Part shown: positions 1 to 14,344 of the stretch, in pieces
Position numbering within the stretch: position 1 is the stretch's first letter
Layout: each line of letters starts with the position of its first letter
Origin: Candidatus Hermodarchaeota archaeon
Lineage (GTDB): Archaea; Asgardarchaeota; Lokiarchaeia; Sigyniarchaeales; SOKP01
Direction: 5' to 3'
Assembly: GCA_048885535.1 (NCBI GenBank)
Contig: JBHLLO010000029.1
Span: forward strand, 20,420 to 35,823
DNA: 15,404 nucleotides
The notes under the pieces: model-generated
Databases searched by the model: none
Told to the model about the DNA's origin: nothing
What the model saw: the letters and a program-made list of their open reading frames with translations, nothing else
Program-made: the position numbers and the translations under genes

Positions 1-185
1 TCCTTAATAATAATAATATCTCTTTAATTCTATAAATTTTAAGGTTCAAATTTATTCATATCTTTTTAGCTTTGATTTAAATAATTATACTTGTTAAATA
101 ATTTAACTATTCTAAAGGTTTAAAAAATTGTACATACTACTATGCAAATAATTAAATAGATTAAATGCAACTAGGAGAGTTTTAA

Positions 186-734
186 ATGGCTGAAATTAAA
201 TTTAAAATTGTAGTTATCGGGGATGCAGCAGTAGGAAAAACATCCTTAATAAGAAAATATACAAAGGGAGACTTTCAGGAAGATTATATTGCAACGCTTG
301 GTGCCCAATTCACTCAGTACGAGGAAAAGATCGAAGATGTTAACTTAAAATTCATATTTTGGGATATTGCGGGACAAGAGATATTCGAACAGATGCGCAA
401 AAAGTTTTACTCAGGAACTAAAGGAGCCATCATAGTTTTTTCACATTCTTCCGATGAACAGAATAGTTTCAGAAGAATTAGTAAATGGCTTTCGGAAATC
501 AGAAAGTATTGTGGAAAAATTCAAATAGCATTATTTGGAAATAAAATAGATTTAGTGAATGAAGAAGAATTACGCAGAAATGAGAATTTAGATACTTCTG
601 ATTTAAATGTAGAAAGATATGTCAGAGAAAATGATTTCTTGGGTTATTATAAAACGAGTGCATTAACAGGTCAAGGTGTTTACGATGCATTTCGTGCTCT
701 AGCAAAAAGACTCTATTCTTTGGGAAAATTTTAA
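186..734 (+). CDS. Rab/Ras-superfamily small GTPase (Asgard Rab-like), paralog 1
   Basis: G1 GDAAVGKT, G2 region YIATLG, G3 WDIAGQ, G4 NKID, G5 TSA; N-terminal FKIVVIG strand; GGAG SD-like motif at 174-177; no C-terminal Cys/prenylation tail. Confidence 0.93.
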   Translation: MAEIKFKIVVIGDAAVGKTSLIRKYTKGDFQEDYIATLGAQFTQYEEKIEDVNLKFIFWDIAGQEIFEQMRKKFYSGTKGAIIVFSHSSDEQNSFRRISKWLSEIRKYCGKIQIALFGNKIDLVNEEELRRNENLDTSDLNVERYVRENDFLGYYKTSALTGQGVYDAFRALAKRLYSLGKF

Positions 735-827: not shown

Positions 828-1367
828 ATGGCGGACGTTAAATTTAAAATAACTGTAATTGGAGATGCTGCGGTTGGAAAAACATCCTTGATTAAGAAAT
901 ATACTAAAGGTGAGTTTCAGAGAAATTACATTTCTACTCTTGGCACCCAATTCACACGACATGAAGAAGTTATTGAGGGTGTTGCTATTGAACTTATTTT
1001 ATGGGATATAGCAGGACAAGCTGCATTTGAAGTTATGCGCCAAAATTTTTACACGGGTAGCAGTGGTGCAATTATTGTATTTTCCCATTCTCCAAATGAG
1101 ACGAAAAGTTTTAATAACATTGATAAATGGCTTTCTGAAGTGAGAGAGCATTGCGGTAATGTGCAGATTGCATTATTTGGGAACAAAATTGATTTAATAA
1201 GTGAAGAAGAACTGCAATCTACGGCATTATGTGATTCAAATGTTGAAGGATATGTAAAATCTCATAATTTTTTGGGTTATTATAAAACAAGTGCATTAAC
1301 AGGTGAAGGAGTATATGAGGCTTTTTACGCGTTAGCAAAAAGGTTGCACTCTTTAAAAAATTATTAA
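828..1367 (+). CDS. Rab/Ras-superfamily small GTPase (Asgard Rab-like), paralog 2
   Basis: Same G1-G5 motifs (GDAAVGKT, WDIAGQ, NKID, TSA); co-linear with paralog 1 over its whole length (shared GAIIVFSHS, QIALFGNKIDL, FLGYYKTSALTG). Confidence 0.93.
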   Translation: MADVKFKITVIGDAAVGKTSLIKKYTKGEFQRNYISTLGTQFTRHEEVIEGVAIELILWDIAGQAAFEVMRQNFYTGSSGAIIVFSHSPNETKSFNNIDKWLSEVREHCGNVQIALFGNKIDLISEEELQSTALCDSNVEGYVKSHNFLGYYKTSALTGEGVYEAFYALAKRLHSLKNY

Positions 1368-1406: not shown

Positions 1407-3659
1407 TTATGTACGCTTATAGATAAATCTTTCCCAAGATTTCGTTGAAGGCATTTCTTCGGGCATTCCTTTACGTTTTCTTATTTCTAATATTAAATCT
1501 TCTTCCAATGATGGAGGTACTTTCTCAAAATTTTTAAATTCATAACCAAAGAAAGCTCTACCCTGTGTTGAACTTCTTATTTCATCAGCTATGCCCACTA
1601 TTTCAGCAGCAGGAATCTGTCCTTGAACTCTAACGTACTCTCCTTCTGGGATAACATTATTAATTCTCCCTCTATGTTTACTAATAATTGTACTTATGGA
1701 TCCCTCAGTCCCTTGTGGTGTTTTTACATCTATTTTTTGAACTGGTTCGAAAAGATGAGGTTCTGCATTTAACATAGCAAGTGAGAGAGCTGAGTATGCC
1801 ATTGATGCTGTTTGAGCAAATTGAGTATGACGGGGATCTTCATGTATTACTAAATCCGTAAACACCGCTCTGATACCCATAGCGGGTTCTTTCGCTATAA
1901 TACATTCGTCTATCCAATTCCTAAATGAACTAACAAGATCATTTTTAATTCTATCAAATCTTTGTAGACCTGCGGCTCCATTTACAAGCAGATTTCCTTT
2001 ATAGACGTCAATAATACGACGCGCTTCTTTAGCATCCCAACCTGCCTTTTCTCTTAATATTTGAGCTCGTTCTTTTTCATCTTGCAAGTCTGTAATATAT
2101 CCTTCATCGATTAATTGTTCTGTTGTTTCATCTAAAGGTTCAACATATAAAATAATTCGATTATGAGCATTGGATGATTTTGTATTAAACTCTTTACTTT
2201 TACTAGTGATTTTTTCTCTGTAAACTATGATGGGTTCTCCAATATCAATTTGAACTTGGATATTAATTCTTTTAGTAAGAATTTCAATTTGTAGTGGGTC
2301 AATCCCACTTAAAATGTACTCCATCGACTCTTTATTCAATCGAAATTCAGCAGTTGGGTCAGCTTGTAACCATTTATTAACCACTTCACCTAATTTTGCA
2401 AGTTCATGTGGGTCCTTTGCTTTAATGCTTCTTGAAACAACAGCTTTACAGGCATAATGTATTTTTTCAAACGTTGGAATTTTTGAAATCTCATCTTTAT
2501 CTTTAGGAATTGTATCAGCATGAACAAATGTTTCACCAGAAGGACAAATAAATCCATATAAAGCAAATAAATTTCCAGCGGGAATTTTTGGAATATCTAA
2601 GATATCTGTAATTTCCATAACACCTAGCCTTTTAACTCTGTTTGAAGTACGATTTCCAAGAAGATAAATACTGTCTGTTTGATCAAAAGTCCCTGAAAAT
2701 ACACGACCAATCAGAGTAGCTTGATAATTTCGTTTTGGATCTAAGAAAATCTTAGTAATCATACCATAGAGTGGTCCTTTAGGGTCACTCTTTGTTAATG
2801 ATTGACCAAGTTCTGAATTCAAGTCTCCACCCCAGAGATGAGGAATTCTATATTTAGCTGCCGAGATAGGGTCAGGTAGATGATCAACAACCATTCTTAG
2901 CATTGGTTCATCAAGGGGAAGATTATCTCTTAACCACTGAATGTCCCCTTCGTTATATTTCTCAAAAACCGTAATAGGAGTCAGCCCTTTTTCCTTTAAT
3001 ATCTCATAGGTAAACCCCCAGCCATGTTTTGCTGAACCTACAGCCACACTATTCTTGGCAAAGTCAACTCCCCAGTCTGATCCCTCAGGTCTAACTTTCT
3101 TAATCAATTCATTTACTTGTTTAGTTATTTCATCTATCTTGGCATAAGTATCTTTAGGACTTAGTTTTAATTCACTAATTAATCTGTCAACTTTATTTAT
3201 AAAAAGGACAGGTTTACAGTATTCTTCACCAACTGCAAGACGAATATTTGTTTCTGTTTGAGTCATAACACCTTCTAAAGCATCAACCAATATCATAGCA
3301 CCATCACTACCTCTTAATGCTCGAGATACTTCTCCAGTGAAGGAAATATGACCAGGTGTATCATTCAATTGAAGAATATATGGTTCATTGTCATCAGGGT
3401 TTCTTTCATCTTTAAAAGCAAGTAAAACGACACTTGTGAAAATTGTGATGCCTCGTTCTTGCTCTTCATCATCCGAGTCCGTCATTTGGAGTTGTCCAGC
3501 ATCTTCAGGACGCATAAGACCTGCTCGTCTTAATAAGTAATCCGTAGCAGTGGTTTTTCCATGATCAATATGAGCAGTTATGCTAAATATTCTTTTCTTC
3601 TCATATGAACCAGAAGTCACCAGCTTCGCGATTTCCTCCGGATTCTTTACTTTAACCAT
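1407..3659 (-). CDS. fusA: Archaeal elongation factor 2 family GTPase (EF-2 or divergent aEF-2 paralog)
   Basis: AHIDHGKTT, ERGITI, DTPGH, NKVD; domain IV/V signatures PIIVYRE, HED..H, LFEPVQK, IRSSTQGRA, IRKRKG; 750 aa fits aEF-2. The diphthamide loop is non-canonical (HEDPRHTQFAQ). Confidence 0.93.
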   Translation of the reverse strand: MVKVKNPEEIAKLVTSGSYEKKRIFSITAHIDHGKTTATDYLLRRAGLMRPEDAGQLQMTDSDDEEQERGITIFTSVVLLAFKDERNPDDNEPYILQLNDTPGHISFTGEVSRALRGSDGAMILVDALEGVMTQTETNIRLAVGEEYCKPVLFINKVDRLISELKLSPKDTYAKIDEITKQVNELIKKVRPEGSDWGVDFAKNSVAVGSAKHGWGFTYEILKEKGLTPITVFEKYNEGDIQWLRDNLPLDEPMLRMVVDHLPDPISAAKYRIPHLWGGDLNSELGQSLTKSDPKGPLYGMITKIFLDPKRNYQATLIGRVFSGTFDQTDSIYLLGNRTSNRVKRLGVMEITDILDIPKIPAGNLFALYGFICPSGETFVHADTIPKDKDEISKIPTFEKIHYACKAVVSRSIKAKDPHELAKLGEVVNKWLQADPTAEFRLNKESMEYILSGIDPLQIEILTKRINIQVQIDIGEPIIVYREKITSKSKEFNTKSSNAHNRIILYVEPLDETTEQLIDEGYITDLQDEKERAQILREKAGWDAKEARRIIDVYKGNLLVNGAAGLQRFDRIKNDLVSSFRNWIDECIIAKEPAMGIRAVFTDLVIHEDPRHTQFAQTASMAYSALSLAMLNAEPHLFEPVQKIDVKTPQGTEGSISTIISKHRGRINNVIPEGEYVRVQGQIPAAEIVGIADEIRSSTQGRAFFGYEFKNFEKVPPSLEEDLILEIRKRKGMPEEMPSTKSWERFIYKRT

Positions 3660-3826: not shown

Positions 3827-4138
3827 TTAATCTGGAATTCGTTCTATTTTGAAACAAACCGGTCGTATACCGTCTGGACATGCAGTATATATCATATCCT
3901 TTCCAGTCCAAGTAGGAAATCCACCACCACATTGTAGAATAGAAATATTTTTATATAGTCCATACCAAGCATGATGACAGAAGCCCTCAGGCATATTTCC
4001 GCTTTCATCTACTATAAATTCTTTACCTTCAGTCATCCCGCATTTTGTTATGGGTATTCCGTTAGGTCGGATGAATTCATGACCGAGAACATCCTCAGGA
4101 CCAAATTGTTTCACAACTTTAATCTTTATTTTACTCAT
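3827..4138 (-). CDS. TIGR04076-family small Cys-containing protein
   Basis: Pattern KIKIKV...C...G.EF.V......PEGFC..AW...Y.......C.DG.RPV.FKIERI, recognised from memory as TIGR04076-like; paralog of the adjacent ORF. Confidence 0.8.
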   Translation of the reverse strand: MSKIKIKVVKQFGPEDVLGHEFIRPNGIPITKCGMTEGKEFIVDESGNMPEGFCHHAWYGLYKNISILQCGGGFPTWTGKDMIYTACPDGIRPVCFKIERIPD

Positions 4139-4169: not shown

Positions 4170-4481
4170 TTAATCATTAATTCTCTCTAACTTAAAGCAA
4201 ACAGGTTTTCGTCCATCAGAACATGAAGTATGTTGAATTCCTTCCTCGTGTCCATAGAAGTTTCCATTGAAATATAGCACAGATAAGTCTTTATAAATAT
4301 CTCGCCATGCCCAACCGCAAAATCCTTCTGGCATCTTTTCGATATGTTCTACTATAAATTCTTGACCTTCATCAAAAGCGCTACATATTGTGATTTTTGT
4401 ACCATTTTTCGAGTATATTTCATGTCCAAAGACATCAATCGGGCTGAACTTTTTAATTACTGTAATTTTTATTTTTGACAT
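4170..4481 (-). CDS. TIGR04076-family small Cys-containing protein
   Basis: Same pattern (C, MPEGFCGWAW, CSDGRKPVCFKLERI) and same length (103 aa) as its neighbour. Confidence 0.8.
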   Translation of the reverse strand: MSKIKITVIKKFSPIDVFGHEIYSKNGTKITICSAFDEGQEFIVEHIEKMPEGFCGWAWRDIYKDLSVLYFNGNFYGHEEGIQHTSCSDGRKPVCFKLERIND

Positions 4482-6321: not shown

Positions 6322-7029
6322 TTAAACTTTTATTGTATTAAATGAGATTTGAATTTCATTATAAAATTCTTTTATATATGCTCGAATTAATTTTGCTTTT
6401 GATTCAATTTCTTGCTTTTTACCAGCAACTCCTTTAATCTCATCTAAGCTTTCTATCCAAATTCCTTTATAAATATGTTCAGACTCTTGAAACTTTACTT
6501 CTAATTCTTGGCAAAGCAATTCAATGTTTTCTTCAATGATTTCATTTATTGATGTATTTAAAACAATAGTAACCATAAGCAATTCCTTATTCCCTCGGGA
6601 CCACTCAGATTCTATTTCAAAATAGTAATTCATTGATGAAAAAAATATCGTTTGATAAGTAAAAAACTTCTCCCTTGTTGCTATTTCAAAGAGATTACTT
6701 GCATTATATTTTTCTCTCTCAGTAAATACATCTTCTGGATATGAATAAAAAATAAGCGGTCCTTTTTTTCTATGAAAATATGTAAATAGAACTCCTGATT
6801 TTAAAGATATTTTCGCTTCTGGAATTAGAATTAGACTATATGAAGCGTCTGGATTTATTAATTTGTCTTCGAGATATACTTTACTTATTGTAAATTTAGC
6901 TCCATTCTTATGCAGACGAAGTGATTGACTTCTGAGTCCTAATCCTCCATATTTTTTTGCTTCTGAAATTATCTTTTTTCTATCTTTTTCGTGCATTATT
7001 TCCATTTCATGAAATGAAATAAATATCAT
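6322..7029 (-). CDS. Hypothetical protein with a probable longin/uDENN-like C-terminal domain and a possibly degenerate PAS-like N-terminus
   Basis: 235-aa ORF. VLFTYFHRKKGPLIFYSYP resembles the F-x4-GP-x6-P start of longin/uDENN folds, followed by MNYYFEIESEWSRGNKELLMVTIVL. IMHEKDR...RLHKNG resembles PAS/PAC motifs. Domain calls are by eye; start uncertain (several Mets). Confidence 0.6.
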   Translation of the reverse strand: MIFISFHEMEIMHEKDRKKIISEAKKYGGLGLRSQSLRLHKNGAKFTISKVYLEDKLINPDASYSLILIPEAKISLKSGVLFTYFHRKKGPLIFYSYPEDVFTEREKYNASNLFEIATREKFFTYQTIFFSSMNYYFEIESEWSRGNKELLMVTIVLNTSINEIIEENIELLCQELEVKFQESEHIYKGIWIESLDEIKGVAGKKQEIESKAKLIRAYIKEFYNEIQISFNTIKV

Positions 7030-9264: not shown

Positions 9265-9888
9265 TCATTTACGGAGGATTTCCTTATACAAAGTCTCGAT
9301 AAATTTTTTAAAATTTTCTTTTGTGAATTCCACAAGTATTTTTGGCATTAGTAATGTTGGAACATATTCCTGGTTTTCATAAATTGGGATGATTTTCACT
9401 TTCTTCGTCTTTCCTAACTGATAAGCAGCTTTCCATTCACCTTTTACTGATTTTGATTTAGTAGCATTCCTAGTACAGAATAGGATAAAGACCTGGCTTA
9501 TTTTCAAAGTTCGCTCCATATAATCAACAACATCTTCACCACTATCGGCTTCCCAATAAAAAACTCTATCGATTTCTGGGTATAATTCTAGATTTTTCGC
9601 AATTTCAGATATTGTAAAATAATTCGAATCCTTCGTTGAGTAACTTAAAAAAATATTAAAACTTTTCGAAAAGCAATTTGTAATACTGTAAATATAGAGA
9701 GCGGATTCACGAATTTCTTCGAGCGTTGCAATATTTTGATCTAACTTAGTTTTGAATGTTCTTAATTTTTCAATATTTTCATTAAAACTTTCCTTATCAG
9801 AGAAAATTTTTGAAAAAATATTTTCCCAATTATATTTCTCTGTGACTATTGGAAGATAGTACTCAATATCTAATTTTATTTTAGTCAT
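9265..9888 (-). CDS. TIR-domain protein with an N-terminal helical segment (probable second half of a Swt1/HEPN-like domain); possibly the C-terminus of the upstream membrane protein
   Basis: TIR box 1 FNIFLSYSTKDS, YMERTLKISQVFILFCT, SKSVKGEWKAA (Glu at the usual catalytic position), KIIPIY, VPTLL; TIR spans about 9265-9660; ATGA overlap with the upstream ORF. Confidence 0.88.
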   Translation of the reverse strand: MTKIKLDIEYYLPIVTEKYNWENIFSKIFSDKESFNENIEKLRTFKTKLDQNIATLEEIRESALYIYSITNCFSKSFNIFLSYSTKDSNYFTISEIAKNLELYPEIDRVFYWEADSGEDVVDYMERTLKISQVFILFCTRNATKSKSVKGEWKAAYQLGKTKKVKIIPIYENQEYVPTLLMPKILVEFTKENFKKFIETLYKEILRK

Positions 9889-12800
9889 ATATTTTCTGGT
9901 AGTTTTTTGATTTTTTCTATTTGAGTTTTAATATTATCTGGTATACCTTTTTTAAACCATTCCTCATTATAATACTCTTTTAATTTTGTTATAATAAAGT
10001 TACTCATCTTGTCCTCAAATTTGGTTAGCTCATTCTTAGCTATAGATTTCTCTTTTTTAAATTGTCTGGATTTTCTAATTTTCTGTTTAGTTATTAAGAT
10101 AACAGTTGAAATTATGGCAATTCCAAGGAAGGAAGTAATTATTAAGATTAACCATTCTCCTGGTATCCCATCTTGTGGAGATCTTATTTTATAAATAAAA
10201 ACATCCTCCCATCCAAGATTACCTAATGTATCGTTTGCATAAAATCTGATCCATACTGCACCTGGAGAAATCTCTTCCCACAGTTCTTGATCTATTATTC
10301 CTACCAAACTTGAAATTGAGATATTAGTATTACCTTCATCTAAAGTATACCAAATCTTATCTAAATTTCCCTCAATCATAGAGAGCTCATATACGGGAGC
10401 TAAATAAAACTCATCATCGCGAGTTGGATCATGGATCGTAATTATTGGTCCTAAAATATCTTTTCTAACTTTTATTTCCTTTATCCCAATATTTCCATCT
10501 GTGTCATTAGCATAAAATTTTATTGTTACAGTTCCATTTCCTACAGTATCCCATAAAGTTTGATATATTGAACCATTATTAGTAAATGTGGTATTAGTAA
10601 TTCCACCATCAAGAGAATACCACATAGCATCTAGAAACAAATCTTCAATCTTTACTATAAAATTAGGGGCAAGTTTTCCAAATAAATTGTTATTTGGATT
10701 TGGAGATATAATTGTAATTATTGGTCCTAAAAGATCAGTTATTGTGACTGTAACAGTATCAGGAATCCCAAATTGATTACGATCATCAAAATATTCTATA
10801 GTATAGCTATAAATACCCTTATTTGTAATATTAACTGGTACGGTAATAAGAGAGTTGTTATACCATGTAGTCCAATTTTTCCATATGTAGAAATTTCCTA
10901 CTGTGTTGTTTGCCAATATTCGATATTTTCCTGCACCAAAATCATCTATTAGTGTCCAATTAATAGTTTTTGGTTTATTAATGTCTATTAATATAGATAT
11001 TGGGTGAGTACACCTTGGTAATCTGTCTACTATTGTAACTATAACAATATTAGGAATGCCATATTGAATGTGATAGTCATAATATTCAATTGTATATTCA
11101 TATGTTCCTGGAGCACTACGATTAATAGGTACGTTAATTAATGTGTTACTTTCCCATGGAGTCCAATTTATACAAGTATAGAAATTTCCAACTGTATTAT
11201 TTGCCAATACACGGTACATTCCCCCACCTAGATCATCATAGAGCGTCCAATTAATAGTTTCAGAACCATTCCTAAATGTTATTATAGAATTTGGATGATT
11301 TGAAGTTGGAACGCTACTTCTTATACGCTGTGCGTAAACATCAGCATGAGATCCGCTCCTTAAATCAGACCACGTGATAATGGCCCCCCCTACTCCGTCA
11401 TTGATCATTTTAGGAGCATTTTGGTCATTATTTGCTAAAGATATGAACGTGCCATTAGCTGTCCACTTAACCATCCCATTAGAATCAATTCGTTGCGCGT
11501 AAATATCGCAGTTAGAACCGCTTCTAAAATCCTCCCAAACAATAATTGCACCACCTACTCCGTGCTTAGTTATTTGAGGGGAAATTTGGTCATTGATTGA
11601 TGTGGATATAGCCGTACCGTTAGGCATCCATTGTGCGTTTCCATTAGAATCGATTCGTTGTGTGTAAATATCGGAATCAAAATCGCTTCTATAATCCCCC
11701 CACGCTATTATTGCGCCTCCTAATCCATCGCTAGTTATTTGAGGTTCTCCTTGGCTTTCGCTTGCGGTGGATATAGCTATACCGTTAGCCATCCATAGGG
11801 TAACCCCGTTGGAATCAATGCGTTGTGCATAAATATCAGAATTCCCTGTCCCATTTCTAGCATCCTCCCATGCAATAATTGCTCCTCCCAATCCGTCGGG
11901 GGCTATCTGAAATCTAAATTGGTGGTTAATGGCAGTACATAAAGCCGTTCCATTAGCAGCCCATTGCGTGATCCCATTAGAATCAATCCGCTGTACATAA
12001 ATATCATAGTCAGTTCCGCTTCTATAATCCCCCCACGCTATTATTGCGCCTCCTGCTCCGTCACTAGTTAATTGAAGATATCTTTGGTTTTCGTTTGCAG
12101 TGGATACAGCCGTACCGTTAGCCATCCACAGGGAAGCCCCATCGGAATCGATACGTTGTGCATAAATATCAGAATTCCCTACCCCATTTCTAGTATCCTC
12201 CCATGCAATAATCGCACCCCCTAATCCGTCGCTGATAATTTGAAGATATCTCTGATCGTTAATTGCTGTAGAAATGATCGTGCCATTAGCTGTCCACTTC
12301 ACCATCCCATTAGAATCGATTCGTTGCGCGTAAATATCCCAGTTAGAACCGCTTCTAAAATCCTCCCAAACAATAACCGCACCCCCTATTCCATCACTGG
12401 CTATTTGGGGAGTCCATTGATGACCACTTGCCATGCTTATGACCGTTCCATTAGCAATCCATTGTGTTATCCCATTATGATTGATTCTTTGAGCATAAAT
12501 ATCCGAATTTGTTCCGCTTCTAAAATCCCACCATGTGATGATCCCACCCCCCGTTCCATCGCTAGTTATTTGAGAAGAATATTGGTCACTAATTGCCGTG
12601 CATATAACCTTGCCATTAGCCGTCCATTTTGGGATTCCATTAGAATCTATTAATGTAGAATAAATGTCTGAAAATAATCCACTCCTAAAATCTTCCCACG
12701 TAATAATAGCATCACCTTTTCCGTTGTTGGTTATTTGAACATCTACTTGTTCCCCACTTGCCGTGATTATAGCCGTACCATTACCAATATACTGCGGGTT

Positions 12801-14120
12801 TCCTTCGGAATCGATCCGTTGTGCGTAAATATCGTAACCTCCAATTGCATTATTTGACCAAACAATGATCGCTCCCCCTACTCCATCACTGGTTATTTTA
12901 GGAGACAATTGGGAACCACTTGCGGTTGATATAGCCATTCCATCAACAGTCCACTGCACATTTCCTTTGGAATCGATCCGTTGTGCGTAAATATCTTGAC
13001 CTGAAATACTGCTTCTATAATCCCACCATGTGATGATCCCACCCCCTGCTCCATCATTGATAATTTGAGGATTTTCTTGTGTACCGCTTGCTGCACATAC
13101 GGATGTGCCATTTGCTGTCCATTGCACGATCCCATTGGCATCGATCCTTTGAGCGTAAATGTCGTAACTCACTCCACTTCTAGAATCTTTCCATGCTATA
13201 ATAGCACCCCCTCCTCCATCACTGGTTATTCTAGGAGACAATTGGGAACCACTTGCAATGCTTATGACCGTCCCATTAGCAATCCACTGTGTTATCCCAT
13301 TATGATTGATTCTTTGAGCATAAATATGCAAATTTGTTCCGCTTCTATAATCCTGCCATGCAATGATAGCACCCCCTACTCCGTCGCAAGTCATTTGAGG
13401 AATCATCTGGTTATGGGTTTCAGTACTAATGATAGTACCGTTAGCCATCCACTGCGTAATCCCGTTGGAGTCGATCCGCTGTGCGTAAATATCATATCCT
13501 GAAGTTTCGATGCTTCTCGCATCCCACCATGCAATGATTGCACCCCCTGCTCCATCGCTGGTTAATTGAGGGTCTATTTGGTCTTCACTTGCAGTGCTTA
13601 TAGCAATCCCATTGGTAGTCCACTGCACGATCCCATTAGAAGCGATCCGCTGAGCGTAAATATCGTAGTCAGTTCCACTTCTATAATCATTCCACACAAT
13701 GATTGCCCCGCCTCTTCCATCGCTAATTATTTGGGGATCTCTTTGATCATTATTTACTGTACTTATTGCTGTACCATTATCTATCCACTGTGCGATCCCG
13801 TTAGAATCAATCCGCTGTACGTAAATATCATAGTCAGTTCCGCTTCTATAATCATGCCACACAATAATAACGCCTCCTTCCCCATCATTGGTTAATTGAG
13901 GGTCTCTTTGGTCATCTACTGCCTTGGTAACGACTGTTCCATTAGGCGCCCATGAAAGTGTAGAGGATAATGAAGGGATATCTTTTTTAGATTTTAATAA
14001 GTCTTCGGGAGCTTGGTTCTTTGAGAAAAAAAATTGATTTAAGTTTATATTGATTATAATGAAAGAATGTGAAATTACCAGTAATATAAAGATTAAATAT
14101 TTGAAATTTTTATTCTTAAA
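9885..14120 (-). CDS. Giant single-pass membrane/surface protein: signal-peptide-like N-terminus, 16 beta-propeller-type repeats, 4 Ig-like domains, TM helix, cytoplasmic tail
   Basis: The frame is open beyond the ORF-track GTG (13862) up to 14123, adding most of repeat 1 and KNKNFKYLIFILLVISHSFIII. Two pairs of ~90-95-aa beta-rich repeats (TINWTL.DD.G.G.YR.LANNTVGNFY; GPIITI..P...WY.LD.G...FYANDT.GN.G). GIPG-WLILIITSFLGIAIISTVILIT-KQKIRK TM at about 10089-10154. Start codon unresolved. Confidence 0.85.
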   Translation of the reverse strand, partial: FKNKNFKYLIFILLVISHSFIIININLNQFFFSKNQAPEDLLKSKKDIPSLSSTLSWAPNGTVVTKAVDDQRDPQLTNDGEGGVIIVWHDYRSGTDYDIYVQRIDSNGIAQWIDNGTAISTVNNDQRDPQIISDGRGGAIIVWNDYRSGTDYDIYAQRIASNGIVQWTTNGIAISTASEDQIDPQLTSDGAGGAIIAWWDARSIETSGYDIYAQRIDSNGITQWMANGTIISTETHNQMIPQMTCDGVGGAIIAWQDYRSGTNLHIYAQRINHNGITQWIANGTVISIASGSQLSPRITSDGGGGAIIAWKDSRSGVSYDIYAQRIDANGIVQWTANGTSVCAASGTQENPQIINDGAGGGIITWWDYRSSISGQDIYAQRIDSKGNVQWTVDGMAISTASGSQLSPKITSDGVGGAIIVWSNNAIGGYDIYAQRIDSEGNPQYIGNGTAIITASGEQVDVQITNNGKGDAIITWEDFRSGLFSDIYSTLIDSNGIPKWTANGKVICTAISDQYSSQITSDGTGGGIITWWDFRSGTNSDIYAQRINHNGITQWIANGTVISMASGHQWTPQIASDGIGGAVIVWEDFRSGSNWDIYAQRIDSNGMVKWTANGTIISTAINDQRYLQIISDGLGGAIIAWEDTRNGVGNSDIYAQRIDSDGASLWMANGTAVSTANENQRYLQLTSDGAGGAIIAWGDYRSGTDYDIYVQRIDSNGITQWAANGTALCTAINHQFRFQIAPDGLGGAIIAWEDARNGTGNSDIYAQRIDSNGVTLWMANGIAISTASESQGEPQITSDGLGGAIIAWGDYRSDFDSDIYTQRIDSNGNAQWMPNGTAISTSINDQISPQITKHGVGGAIIVWEDFRSGSNCDIYAQRIDSNGMVKWTANGTFISLANNDQNAPKMINDGVGGAIITWSDLRSGSHADVYAQRIRSSVPTSNHPNSIITFRNGSETINWTLYDDLGGGMYRVLANNTVGNFYTCINWTPWESNTLINVPINRSAPGTYEYTIEYYDYHIQYGIPNIVIVTIVDRLPRCTHPISILIDINKPKTINWTLIDDFGAGKYRILANNTVGNFYIWKNWTTWYNNSLITVPVNITNKGIYSYTIEYFDDRNQFGIPDTVTVTITDLLGPIITIISPNPNNNLFGKLAPNFIVKIEDLFLDAMWYSLDGGITNTTFTNNGSIYQTLWDTVGNGTVTIKFYANDTDGNIGIKEIKVRKDILGPIITIHDPTRDDEFYLAPVYELSMIEGNLDKIWYTLDEGNTNISISSLVGIIDQELWEEISPGAVWIRFYANDTLGNLGWEDVFIYKIRSPQDGIPGEWLILIITSFLGIAIISTVILITKQKIRKSRQFKKEKSIAKNELTKFEDKMSNFIITKLKEYYNEEWFKKGIPDNIKTQIEKIKKLPENI
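11313..13952 (-). repeat. Intragenic array of 16 ~165-nt (~55-aa) repeats
   Basis: Consensus W.ANGT.ISTA...Q..PQI.SDG.GGAII.W.D.RSG...DIYAQRIDSNG..Q, counted by hand 16 times including the upstream extension. Confidence 0.92.
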
Positions 14121-14344
14121 ATCTTACACCTATTTAGAGATTATTATGATTTATTAATGAATTTATAAACTGACAATTATGTAATAACATGTATGAAAAA
14201 TTCTGAAAGTTTTTATGCTTAATAGCTCTCTCTTACAGATTACATCAAAAATTTTTTGGATTAATTATGAAATTGATAAAAAAGTATTTAATATTTATGT
14301 AAAGACAATCCAAGGCTCTTAAACATTTATTCTTAAATAGTTAT

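Follow-up and report, generated by a model that had tools for sequence, protein, structure and literature searches.

A predicted Swt1-like HEPN domain divided between a receptor-like protein and a separately encoded TIR protein in an Asgard archaeon

Introduction

When a protein domain runs across the boundary between two overlapping reading frames, is the gene broken, switched on and off by a change of frame, or divided into two working genes? The question is raised by a locus of a Candidatus Hermodarchaeota archaeon, within a 15,404-nt stretch of DNA (the window), where the stop codon of a large receptor-like open reading frame (ORF) overlaps the start codon of a small ORF encoding a TIR domain. 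A first-pass annotation, made from the sequence alone, had proposed that one Swt1-like HEPN domain is split over the two ORFs next to two runs of six A, and had offered as causes a 1-nt deletion, phase variation or slippage at the A runs, or an assembly error, while allowing that the overlap might serve coupled translation of a free TIR protein. Precedents exist for more than one of these readings: gene fissions with a stop/start overlap are common in prokaryotes, and programmed -1 frameshifting occurs in bacterial dnaX and in an archaeal alpha-fucosidase.

Results

A receptor-like ORF overlaps a small TIR ORF

The locus lies on the minus strand and comprises the following features:

13863-14123, minus strand: upstream open-frame extension of the large ORF, with a hydrophobic signal-anchor-like stretch and no ATG, GTG or TTG
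9885-13862, minus strand: receptor-like large ORF, 1325 aa from its first canonical start, GTG
10089-10160, minus strand: predicted single TM helix (aa 1235-1258), read from the translation as a hydrophobic stretch
9903-9916, minus strand (coding strand): two A6 runs, at 9911-9916 and 9903-9908, in Lys codons of an inter-helix linker
9885-9888, minus strand: ATGA stop/start overlap of the large ORF and the TIR ORF
9265-9888, minus strand: small TIR ORF of 207 aa (second HEPN half, then TIR)

The large ORF encodes some 20 repeats of roughly 60 aa each, together with Ig-like modules and a single TM helix. A Lys/Arg-rich stop-transfer segment follows the helix, and the cytoplasmic tail is 67 aa long. 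The ORF has no Pfam family above cut-off and is homologous over its whole length to a 1289-aa paralog, C95 (39-52% identity). Its stop TGA occupies 9887-9885 and the ATG of the TIR ORF 9888-9886, the frame of the TIR ORF being -1 relative to that of the large ORF. The TIR frame extends 13 codons upstream of its ATG before it meets a stop at 9930-9928. Reading the three frames shows that one A added to either A6 run fuses the two with no intervening stop codon. The ORFs, the overlap, the 13-codon opening, the positions of the A6 runs and their capacity to fuse the frames had all been described by the first-pass annotation, and all check out.

Here and in C95 the upstream stop overlaps the downstream start, the arrangement by which translationally coupled pairs are recognized. 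No Shine-Dalgarno-like motif is evident on reading the sequence upstream of the window's TIR-ORF ATG. The earlier suggestion that the ATGA overlap could couple translation of a free TIR protein is, in our judgment, plausible.

One HEPN domain is found in two halves

Two segments flanking the junction contain the putative halves of the HEPN domain:

9906-10040, minus strand: first HEPN half, helices 1-2, aa 1275-1319 in the receptor's C-terminal tail
9661-9876, minus strand: second HEPN half, helices 3-7, residues 5-76 of the small ORF

When compared with a local profile derived solely from six natural unbroken domains, the receptor tail alone scored 47.1 bits over profile positions 1-46 and the TIR ORF alone 72.4 bits over positions 62-133, while the read-through with an X at the break gave a single envelope of 114.7 bits spanning positions 1-133. 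Agreement of this kind is far beyond chance and argues, at the level of sequence, that the receptor's cytoplasmic tail and the N terminus of the TIR protein are two halves of one Swt1-like HEPN domain. Since the match across the junction is to a single domain, the initial reading of one divided domain stands.

General databases see less of the domain. The window's halves taken singly have no HEPN match in Pfam even at E ≤ 10, and a genome-wide scan with PF18731 (HEPN_Swt1) returned a sole match, the C95 tail (positions 3-40 of 115, E 0.06, 14.9 bits, below the 27.5 cut-off). The first half matches positions 64-106 of 192 of the PADLOC model PDC-M34B (E 2.1e-4); PADLOC otherwise matched no known named defence system, returning only weak TIR-type models and this candidate.

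Unbroken relatives show the same domain in a single frame, either as LRR-domain-TIR (L009, L010, L011 and L013, from four congeneric genomes) or as ectodomain-TM-domain-TIR (metagenome loci L038 and L039). L039 (about 1548 aa) matches the window's receptor tail over residues 1227-1323 and the window's TIR ORF over residues 1345-1546, with their order preserved. Further fused relatives (P0018-P0024, 1194-1803 aa) combine a large ectodomain with a single TM helix and end in a TIR. Of the 150 top-scoring matches to the domain profile, 149 cross the break position in one stretch.

The domain belongs with the Swt1-like HEPN family

The profile of six unbroken domains found 745 proteins at E ≤ 0.001, and PF18731 is present at the same threshold in 63 of the best 79 of these (best 3.8e-14), which points to homology, at the profile level, with bona fide Swt1-like HEPN members. 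The unbroken L009 domain matches PF18731 in one stretch (positions 3-75); the PF18731 gathering score of 27.5 is not reached by L009 (18.3 bits), L011 (15.7 bits) or the L009 domain alone (21.5 bits).

An AF2 model of the domain (pLDDT 92.9, pTM 0.85) is predicted to adopt the HEPN helical-bundle fold. Its top VIA-align match is the C-terminal domain of yeast Swt1 (4pqz_A; rmsd 2.5 Å over 99 residues) with a Z of 8.0, a modest value for a helical bundle, among which Z under 13 is common; AbiF follows (Z 7.0), then AbiA, Cas13, TT1696, AF0298, Csm6 and sacsin HEPN domains. Foldseek against the PDB gave nothing at E ≤ 0.001, its best TM-score being 0.49, also to 4pqz. The break site, which separates helices 2 and 3, coincides with the model's lowest-confidence block (residues 51-60, pLDDT 70).

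The Abi2/Swt1 clade of HEPN domains was defined by Anantharaman et al. (2013; PMC3710099), and the portions of that work consulted here describe the eukaryotic Swt1 HEPN as probably inactive and list TIR with DUF4145 and AbiJ N-terminal domains, with no Swt1-like HEPN-TIR fusion among the entries of those portions. The domain of this locus shares with Swt1-like HEPN (PF18731) the helix order and the aromatic/Trp and Asn-Trp landmarks. It differs in sitting between a sensor (a TM ectodomain or LRR) and TIR, in being divided between two polypeptides and, as in every TIR-linked member examined, in the residues of its active site.

The TIR keeps its glutamate and the HEPN module has lost its dyad

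Two sites in the small ORF bear on what its product may do:

9310-9654, minus strand: TIR domain, small-ORF residues 79-193, Pfam TIR_2 (PF13676), E 1.5e-14
9736-9753, minus strand: position of the HEPN Rx4H motif, degenerate here (K46-T47-x3-Q51), placed by alignment with the canonical domain of the L014 neighbour (R-N-x3-H)

The TIR_2 match, at 54.9 bits, lies above the cut-off of 28. Residues E151 (9436-9438) and W152 are invariant, E151 being present in 14/14 aligned relatives and aligning with the Glu of the W-x-D-E-L stretch in the Cat1 TIR NADase; we take this column to be the catalytic Glu of NAD-cleaving TIRs.

At the R, N and H columns of the HEPN motif, the window has K, T and Q, C95 has N, N and K, and L039 has N, N and Q. 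Both R and H are absent from all TIR-linked representatives (18/18), and both are kept in 91 of the 132 non-TIR representatives. From this loss of the dyad, the TIR-linked HEPN domain appears to be catalytically dead, and therefore presumably a scaffold rather than an RNase. HEPN domains in general tend to form dimers. The missing dyad had escaped the first-pass annotation.

The junction is supported by sequencing and lacks signals for recoding

Homopolymer indels are common and the break adjoins A6 runs, as would be expected if the true gene were unbroken and one A had been lost by sequencing or assembly. Against this, Logan contigs (1404-1405 nt) of three separately assembled runs, which may be the source samples, match 9300-10366 with 0 differences and 0 gaps at a word depth of 10.6-14.8, and a 243-nt contig from another study's run is identical over 9902-10144. 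The same split is also found in the C95 paralog, and independent metagenome proteins begin at the same column. The chance that the break is an error is, we believe, negligible.

Another reading holds that the fused receptor-HEPN-TIR is the functional form, produced by -1 frameshifting, transcriptional slippage or reversible A6/A7 variation, with the two-ORF form as an off or low state. The single-chain relatives suggest that a fused product would be functional in principle, and the 13-codon opening holds both of the runs at which one extra A fuses the frames; two overlapping frames in -1 relation with an A-rich overlap are also what programmed -1 frameshift genes present. Unlike in such genes, there is no in-frame slippery heptamer: the first-pass annotation had seen no X XXY YYZ, and the zero-frame codons, GAA AAA ATC AAA AAA CTA, confirm this. 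Nor is there a stimulatory structure, the 93 nt downstream folding with an MFE of -8 kcal/mol (z +0.57; 140/200 shuffles fold as well). The paralog does not share the overlap window either: C95 keeps the split although both of its A6 runs are interrupted and its TIR frame is open just one codon upstream of the ATG. At L042, the two ORFs lie 7 nt apart and their frame relation is the opposite one. Runs of A6+/T6+ number 12,952 in this 30%-GC genome (4.2 per kb), and the coding strand of the large and TIR ORFs alone has five A6 runs; those at the junction are nothing special for this genome. The contigs of 4 runs show no A-run indel, a weak argument, as contigs drop rare variants and a minor A7 allele could escape; no RNA run was found to contain the locus. 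On this evidence, we rate a recoding or phase switch as very improbable. As a separate matter, a genetic code read in four-letter steps was considered as a means of read-through and rejected: any one word that produced the required shift would shift the frame at other places too, and the code would have been contrived.

The split is old and the receptor tail is conserved

In the C95 pair, whose TIR ORF is 64% identical to the window's, the two genes meet at the same ATGA overlap. Seven small ORFs (207-216 aa) share their starting column in the alignment and group as a single clade (SH-aLRT 100), with 62-78% identity to the window's where compared; the overlap was verified in DNA at two loci of one genome, P0003, P0004, P0006, P0007 and P0037 being known as proteins only. 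At L042, too, the break falls in the loop between helices 2 and 3, with no overlap and a +1 frame relation. A further protein, P0168, ends directly after the first HEPN half, carries a repeat type different from the window's ectodomain repeats, and sits on a contig as long as that of P0003, a small ORF 76% identical to the window's. The loop appears to have been cut at least once and perhaps a second time.

Of the genus's 42 genomes examined, this one alone shows the split arrangement, the 41 others giving no further split locus with this query at E ≤ 1e-45. A word-based protein search with the receptor tail found, at near length, only the window's own protein and, among shorter ones, only P0168; this search overlooked the C95 receptor, an indication that such searches miss relatives.

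Because relatives keep two ORFs with the same ATGA, the switch and error readings lose their support. Taken together, these comparisons indicate that the split is most probably an old, conserved two-gene arrangement and neither a sequencing error nor an on/off switch. The causes first proposed (a recent 1-nt deletion, phase variation or slippage at the A runs, assembly error) are not supported, in view of the C95 split with its interrupted runs, the single clade of same-start small ORFs, the matching contigs of the three runs and the unstructured downstream region.

An old split could still reflect uncoupling or decay, in which the freed, soluble TIR works alone or with another partner and the half-domain on the receptor is a relic, or the receptor itself is being lost. 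Many TIR proteins, free or otherwise fused, exist in this genome and genus, and the C47 paralog joins an ectodomain and TM helix to a TIR with no HEPN module, which argues that the module is dispensable in some contexts. Set against this, the tail keeps all seven family-invariant positions in all three split receptors aligned; pN is 0.25 versus a pS of 0.54 between the tails of the C29 and C95 paralogs, a rough comparison over 51 codons; receptor and TIR ORF are adjacent, by overlap or 7-nt spacer, at every locus with DNA examined (C29, C95 and L042); and a bundle short of two helices would, judging from the model, expose its core. We find decay or uncoupling improbable.

The two halves are predicted to reassemble

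A complex prediction for the two halves scored 0.64 (runs 0.59-0.64) against 0.00 for the best control, a mark reached by 116/157 solved complexes and 2/215 mismatched pairs, this calibration being only rough given the shallow own alignments used (9 and 14 rows). The runs share at least 81% of contacts, with a partner pLDDT of at least 73. The result supports the rejoining of the two halves into one fold, with the qualification that they are halves of a fold with a solved relative, 4pqz, and that the pass may reflect learned intramolecular packing rather than binding between the two chains.

Discussion

The likely explanation, in our view, is that a natural fission divided the gene within a domain and has since been conserved, the two genes being translationally coupled and the TIR docking non-covalently on the receptor. 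The ancestor would have been a single chain of ectodomain, TM helix, dead Swt1-like HEPN and TIR, a form that persists in relatives. In one clade, the gene would have been cut within the flexible loop between HEPN helices 2 and 3, leaving a receptor whose cytoplasmic tail ends with helices 1-2 and a separate 207-aa protein bearing helices 3-7 and a TIR with the conserved glutamate. Ribosomes finishing the receptor would restart on the TIR gene at the ATGA overlap, and both chains would be made together, in similar amounts. The half-domains would then pack into one helical bundle, as modelled, docking the TIR non-covalently under the membrane receptor, with the HEPN module acting as a structural or assembly scaffold. 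Engagement of the ectodomain would presumably lead to clustering, TIR-TIR association and NAD+ cleavage or production of a signal nucleotide; this signalling scheme follows what is known of TIR proteins.

Naturally split overlapping genes and reassembling split domains offer close parallels: a break in a surface loop, collinear adjacent ORFs, an ATGA overlap and predicted reassembly of the fold are also seen here. The present case differs in that coupling is read from the sequence, with the ATG of the window preceded by no evident Shine-Dalgarno-like motif.

A bolder extension, which we think unlikely, is that the split dead-HEPN bundle is a genuine receptor-adaptor docking module, in which a two-helix "socket" on the receptor accepts plug-in half-HEPN-TIR proteins. 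Sockets would then sit on Asgard surface receptors with different ectodomains, such as those built from the repeat types of the window and of P0168, and receptors could recruit the TIR output, swap it with one another, as the C29 and C95 pairs might, or release it on signal. If true, prokaryotes would have their own counterpart of receptor-plus-TIR-adaptor signalling, one that works through domain complementation instead of TIR-TIR contacts.

Animal Toll-like receptors share the single-chain ectodomain-TM-TIR build of the fused relatives (L039, L038 and P0018-P0024), which differ from them by the dead-HEPN juxtamembrane module between TM helix and TIR; the locus of the window differs further in that its TIR part is a separate gene product. 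The likeness is one of build only: no ectodomain homology to the LRRs of Toll-like receptors is shown and no common descent is claimed.

A literature search, including the portions of PMC3710099 consulted, found no description of a dead Swt1-like HEPN paired with TIR, which is not proof of absence. For annotation, the gene-fission reading carries a caution: in an AT-rich genome, an ATGA overlap beside homopolymers should not on its own be taken to indicate error or phase variation. The locus also amounts to a natural split-protein experiment, the two-gene form having been kept through divergence down to 62% identity, which implies that the halves find each other in the cell. More broadly, our findings point to a sub-family of Swt1-like HEPN domains without the RNase dyad that would form, in Asgard-type archaea, the fixed module linking TIR effectors to their sensors, be these TM ectodomains or LRRs.

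An ORF pair with one HEPN-like domain divided between its proteins

The receptor-like protein and the TIR protein are encoded by overlapping ORFs:

9885-13862, minus strand: large ORF, stop TGA at 9887-9885; translated, it shows an ectodomain rich in repeats, Ig-like modules, a single hydrophobic helix (aa 1235-1258) and a basic tail of 67 aa
9265-9888, minus strand: small ORF (207 aa), start ATG at 9888-9886, overlapping the large-ORF stop as ATGA; TIR domain at residues 79-193 (Pfam TIR_2, 54.9 bits)
9911-9916 and 9903-9908, coding strand of the minus-strand ORFs: A6 runs in the overlap; one added A in either joins both frames
13863-14123, minus strand: upstream open-frame extension of the large ORF (~87 codons), encoding a hydrophobic signal-anchor-like segment

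Re-reading the sequence confirmed the junction described in the first-pass annotation, including the ATGA, the A6 runs and a small-ORF frame that is -1 relative to the large ORF and open for 13 codons upstream of its ATG. TIR residue Glu151 is invariant and lines up with the Glu in the NADase motif of the Cat1 TIR, a column that we take to be the catalytic position of TIR NADases. The first canonical start of the large ORF, GTG at 13862, lies mid-repeat and leaves no signal peptide; the extension at 13863-14123, which includes a T8 run around 14022-14031, holds no ATG, GTG or TTG. Translation may begin at a non-canonical codon, or the frame may have a second problem.

That annotation had also proposed that the tail and the small-ORF N-terminus are halves of one domain, which unbroken relatives and profile scores bear out. 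Searching relatives with the small ORF as query, we found in four congeneric genomes (loci L009, L010, L011 and L013) an open frame of at least 714 aa that runs through LRR repeats, a tail-like stretch, a stretch like the small-ORF N-terminus and a TIR domain. The metagenome loci L038 and L039 each encode ectodomain, TM helix, this same domain and TIR in one chain; in L039 (~1548 aa), residues 1227-1323 align to the tail and 1345-1546 to the small ORF, with order kept. Against a local profile (A4) built solely from six unbroken domains, the tail scored 47.1 bits (positions 1-46), the small ORF 72.4 bits (62-133) and a read-through with X at the break 114.7 bits in a single envelope (1-133). 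An exhaustive profile search of 1.84 billion representatives returned 745 proteins at E<=0.001, and 149 of the best 150 match without interruption across the break position, the sole exception being P0037 (216 aa), a second-half plus TIR protein like the small ORF.

The TIR-linked HEPN branch lacks the catalytic residues

A Swt1-like HEPN identity, as originally claimed, holds for homology and fold and fails for chemistry, the Rx4H dyad being absent. The unbroken L009 domain matches Pfam HEPN_Swt1 (PF18731) in one stretch (positions 3-75) at a sub-threshold 18.3-21.5 bits (cut-off 27.5), and neither half alone has a Pfam match. PF18731 is found at E<=0.001 in 63 of the 79 best profile matches, and their consensus shows the canonical R-N-x3-H. 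The AlphaFold2 model of the L039 domain is a seven-helix bundle (pLDDT 92.9, pTM 0.85), with the break in the loop between helices 2 and 3, its lowest-confidence block (pLDDT 70). Foldseek against PDB gave no match to this model at E<=0.001; VIA-align ranked first the yeast Swt1 C-terminal domain (4pqz_A, Z 8.0, rmsd 2.5 Å over 99 residues), then AbiF (Z 7.0) and a series of HEPN domains, Z values that are modest for helical bundles and carry weight only jointly with the sequence evidence.

The window carries K, T and Q in place of the HEPN R, N and H. Among the best 150 representatives, R and H are both kept in 91/132 non-TIR proteins (the other 41 include truncated alignments) and both absent in all 18 TIR-bearing ones, so the TIR-linked branch is, judging from these residues, a catalytically dead HEPN. 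The HEPN of eukaryotic Swt1, too, is given as probably inactive (PMC3710099, in excerpt). The literature searched yielded nothing that describes a Swt1-like HEPN-TIR module or its split form. At L014, a locus in the genus (G026:C372), a Swt1-like HEPN ORF with a canonical, intact R-N-x3-H (nt 1-480, plus strand) lies two genes upstream of a 537-aa protein starting with a TIR domain (1477-3087, plus strand); active HEPN and TIR are thus also neighbours as separate genes.

The split is real and maintained

A paralogous pair on contig C95 of the same genome comprises a receptor with 39-52% identity along its full length and a small ORF with 64% identity. Its ATGA overlap is as in the window (C29), the two cases seen in DNA both coming from this one genome. 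Neither A run is intact at C95, and the TIR frame extends upstream by a single open codon. Further database small ORFs (207-216 aa, 50-78% identical to the window's) share a common start alignment column. The seven small ORFs of window type group as one clade (SH-aLRT 100) in a 32-sequence tree; outside it falls the L042 protein, whose DNA is split in the same loop, here with a TTG start, a 7-nt spacer and frames related by +1. Two changes of state are needed and well-supported branches force only one; a single origin may be compatible with these branches.

The closest split pair outside this genome is P0168/P0003. P0168 (418 aa, cut by a contig end) stops just past the HEPN first half, and P0003 is a small ORF 76% identical to the window's; both are on contigs of equal size (2033 nt), putatively one metagenome contig. 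Because P0168 has an ectodomain repeat type unlike the window's on the same Ig-like/TM/half-HEPN base, ectodomains seem to have been swapped while the split module was kept. In 41 other genomes of the genus, the query used did not find the split form.

The first-pass readings of the A6 runs as a switch or an error are unlikely to be right: the same split occurs at C95 without intact A runs, and the junction is reproduced. Logan contigs from three runs cover 9300-10366 without difference, although these runs possibly derive from the source samples, and rare alleles do not show up in contigs; a contig of another study is identical over 9902-10144. An assembly error breaking a single gene is contradicted by these Logan contigs, the C95 paralog, the other small ORFs and P0168. 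Frameshifting or slippage that joins the two frames is unlikely: the junction has no slippery heptamer and no RNA structure downstream (z +0.57), the overlap window is not conserved in C95 or L042, and A6 runs are ordinary in this genome (4.2 per kb).

Genomic setting and other TIR proteins

The genome (3.09 Mb, 30% GC) places the pair among two Ras-family GTPases, aEF2, an archaeal CCA-adding enzyme and aIF5B; these surroundings are housekeeping genes, with no defence island evident. Taken as a set, the neighbours indicate an Asgard-type archaeon. Neighbouring features and other TIR proteins of the genome are:

186-734 and 828-1367, plus strand: tandem Ras-family small GTPase genes (Pfam Ras, E 2e-39 and 1e-39), typical for Asgard-type genomes
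3827-4138 and 4170-4481, minus strand: tandem 103-aa ORFs between translation-factor genes
6322-7029, minus strand: 235-aa ORF between translation-factor genes
C47:11600-14653, plus strand: L005, 1018-aa paralog with a different repeat ectodomain, Ig-like modules, TM helix and TIR, no HEPN module
C11:58760-59311, minus strand: L004, TIR protein
C47:7248-7556, plus strand: L007, TIR protein

The two 103-aa ORFs and the 235-aa ORF have no match in Pfam or PADLOC. L005 has the same Ig-like modules as the window (55% identical). L004 and L007 carry front ends other than that of the window pair (one protein, of 548 aa, has two repeated modules at its N-terminus, and the other, of 1738 aa, dozens of LRRs), pointing to a large and shuffled TIR repertoire.

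Harder to exclude is that the tail is a relic and the TIR protein free, as L005 joins its TM helix directly to TIR with the module absent. Against this stand the constant adjacency of receptor and small ORF and the conservation of the tail, which keeps all seven family-invariant positions and, between the window and C95 paralogs, has a pN of 0.25 vs a pS of 0.54 (51 codons, rough).

Predicted reassembly of the divided domain

When the tail (67 aa) and small-ORF residues 1-85 were predicted together as two chains, the score was 0.64 (runs 0.59-0.64) vs 0.00 in all three controls; 116/157 solved complexes and 2/215 mismatched pairs reached that mark. With 78-88 contacts, at least 81% of them common between runs, and a partner pLDDT of at least 73, the prediction supports reassembly of the halves, although the pass may reflect likeness, since both belong to a single fold of which a relative has been solved. 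The ATGA overlap would couple translation of receptor and small ORF, and both chains would rebuild the helical bundle, tethering the TIR module under the receptor.

Taken together, the pair joins elements that are each of a known kind (TIR receptor, dead HEPN domain, gene fission). Its main value would be as a natural split-domain system with predicted docking, open to experiment.
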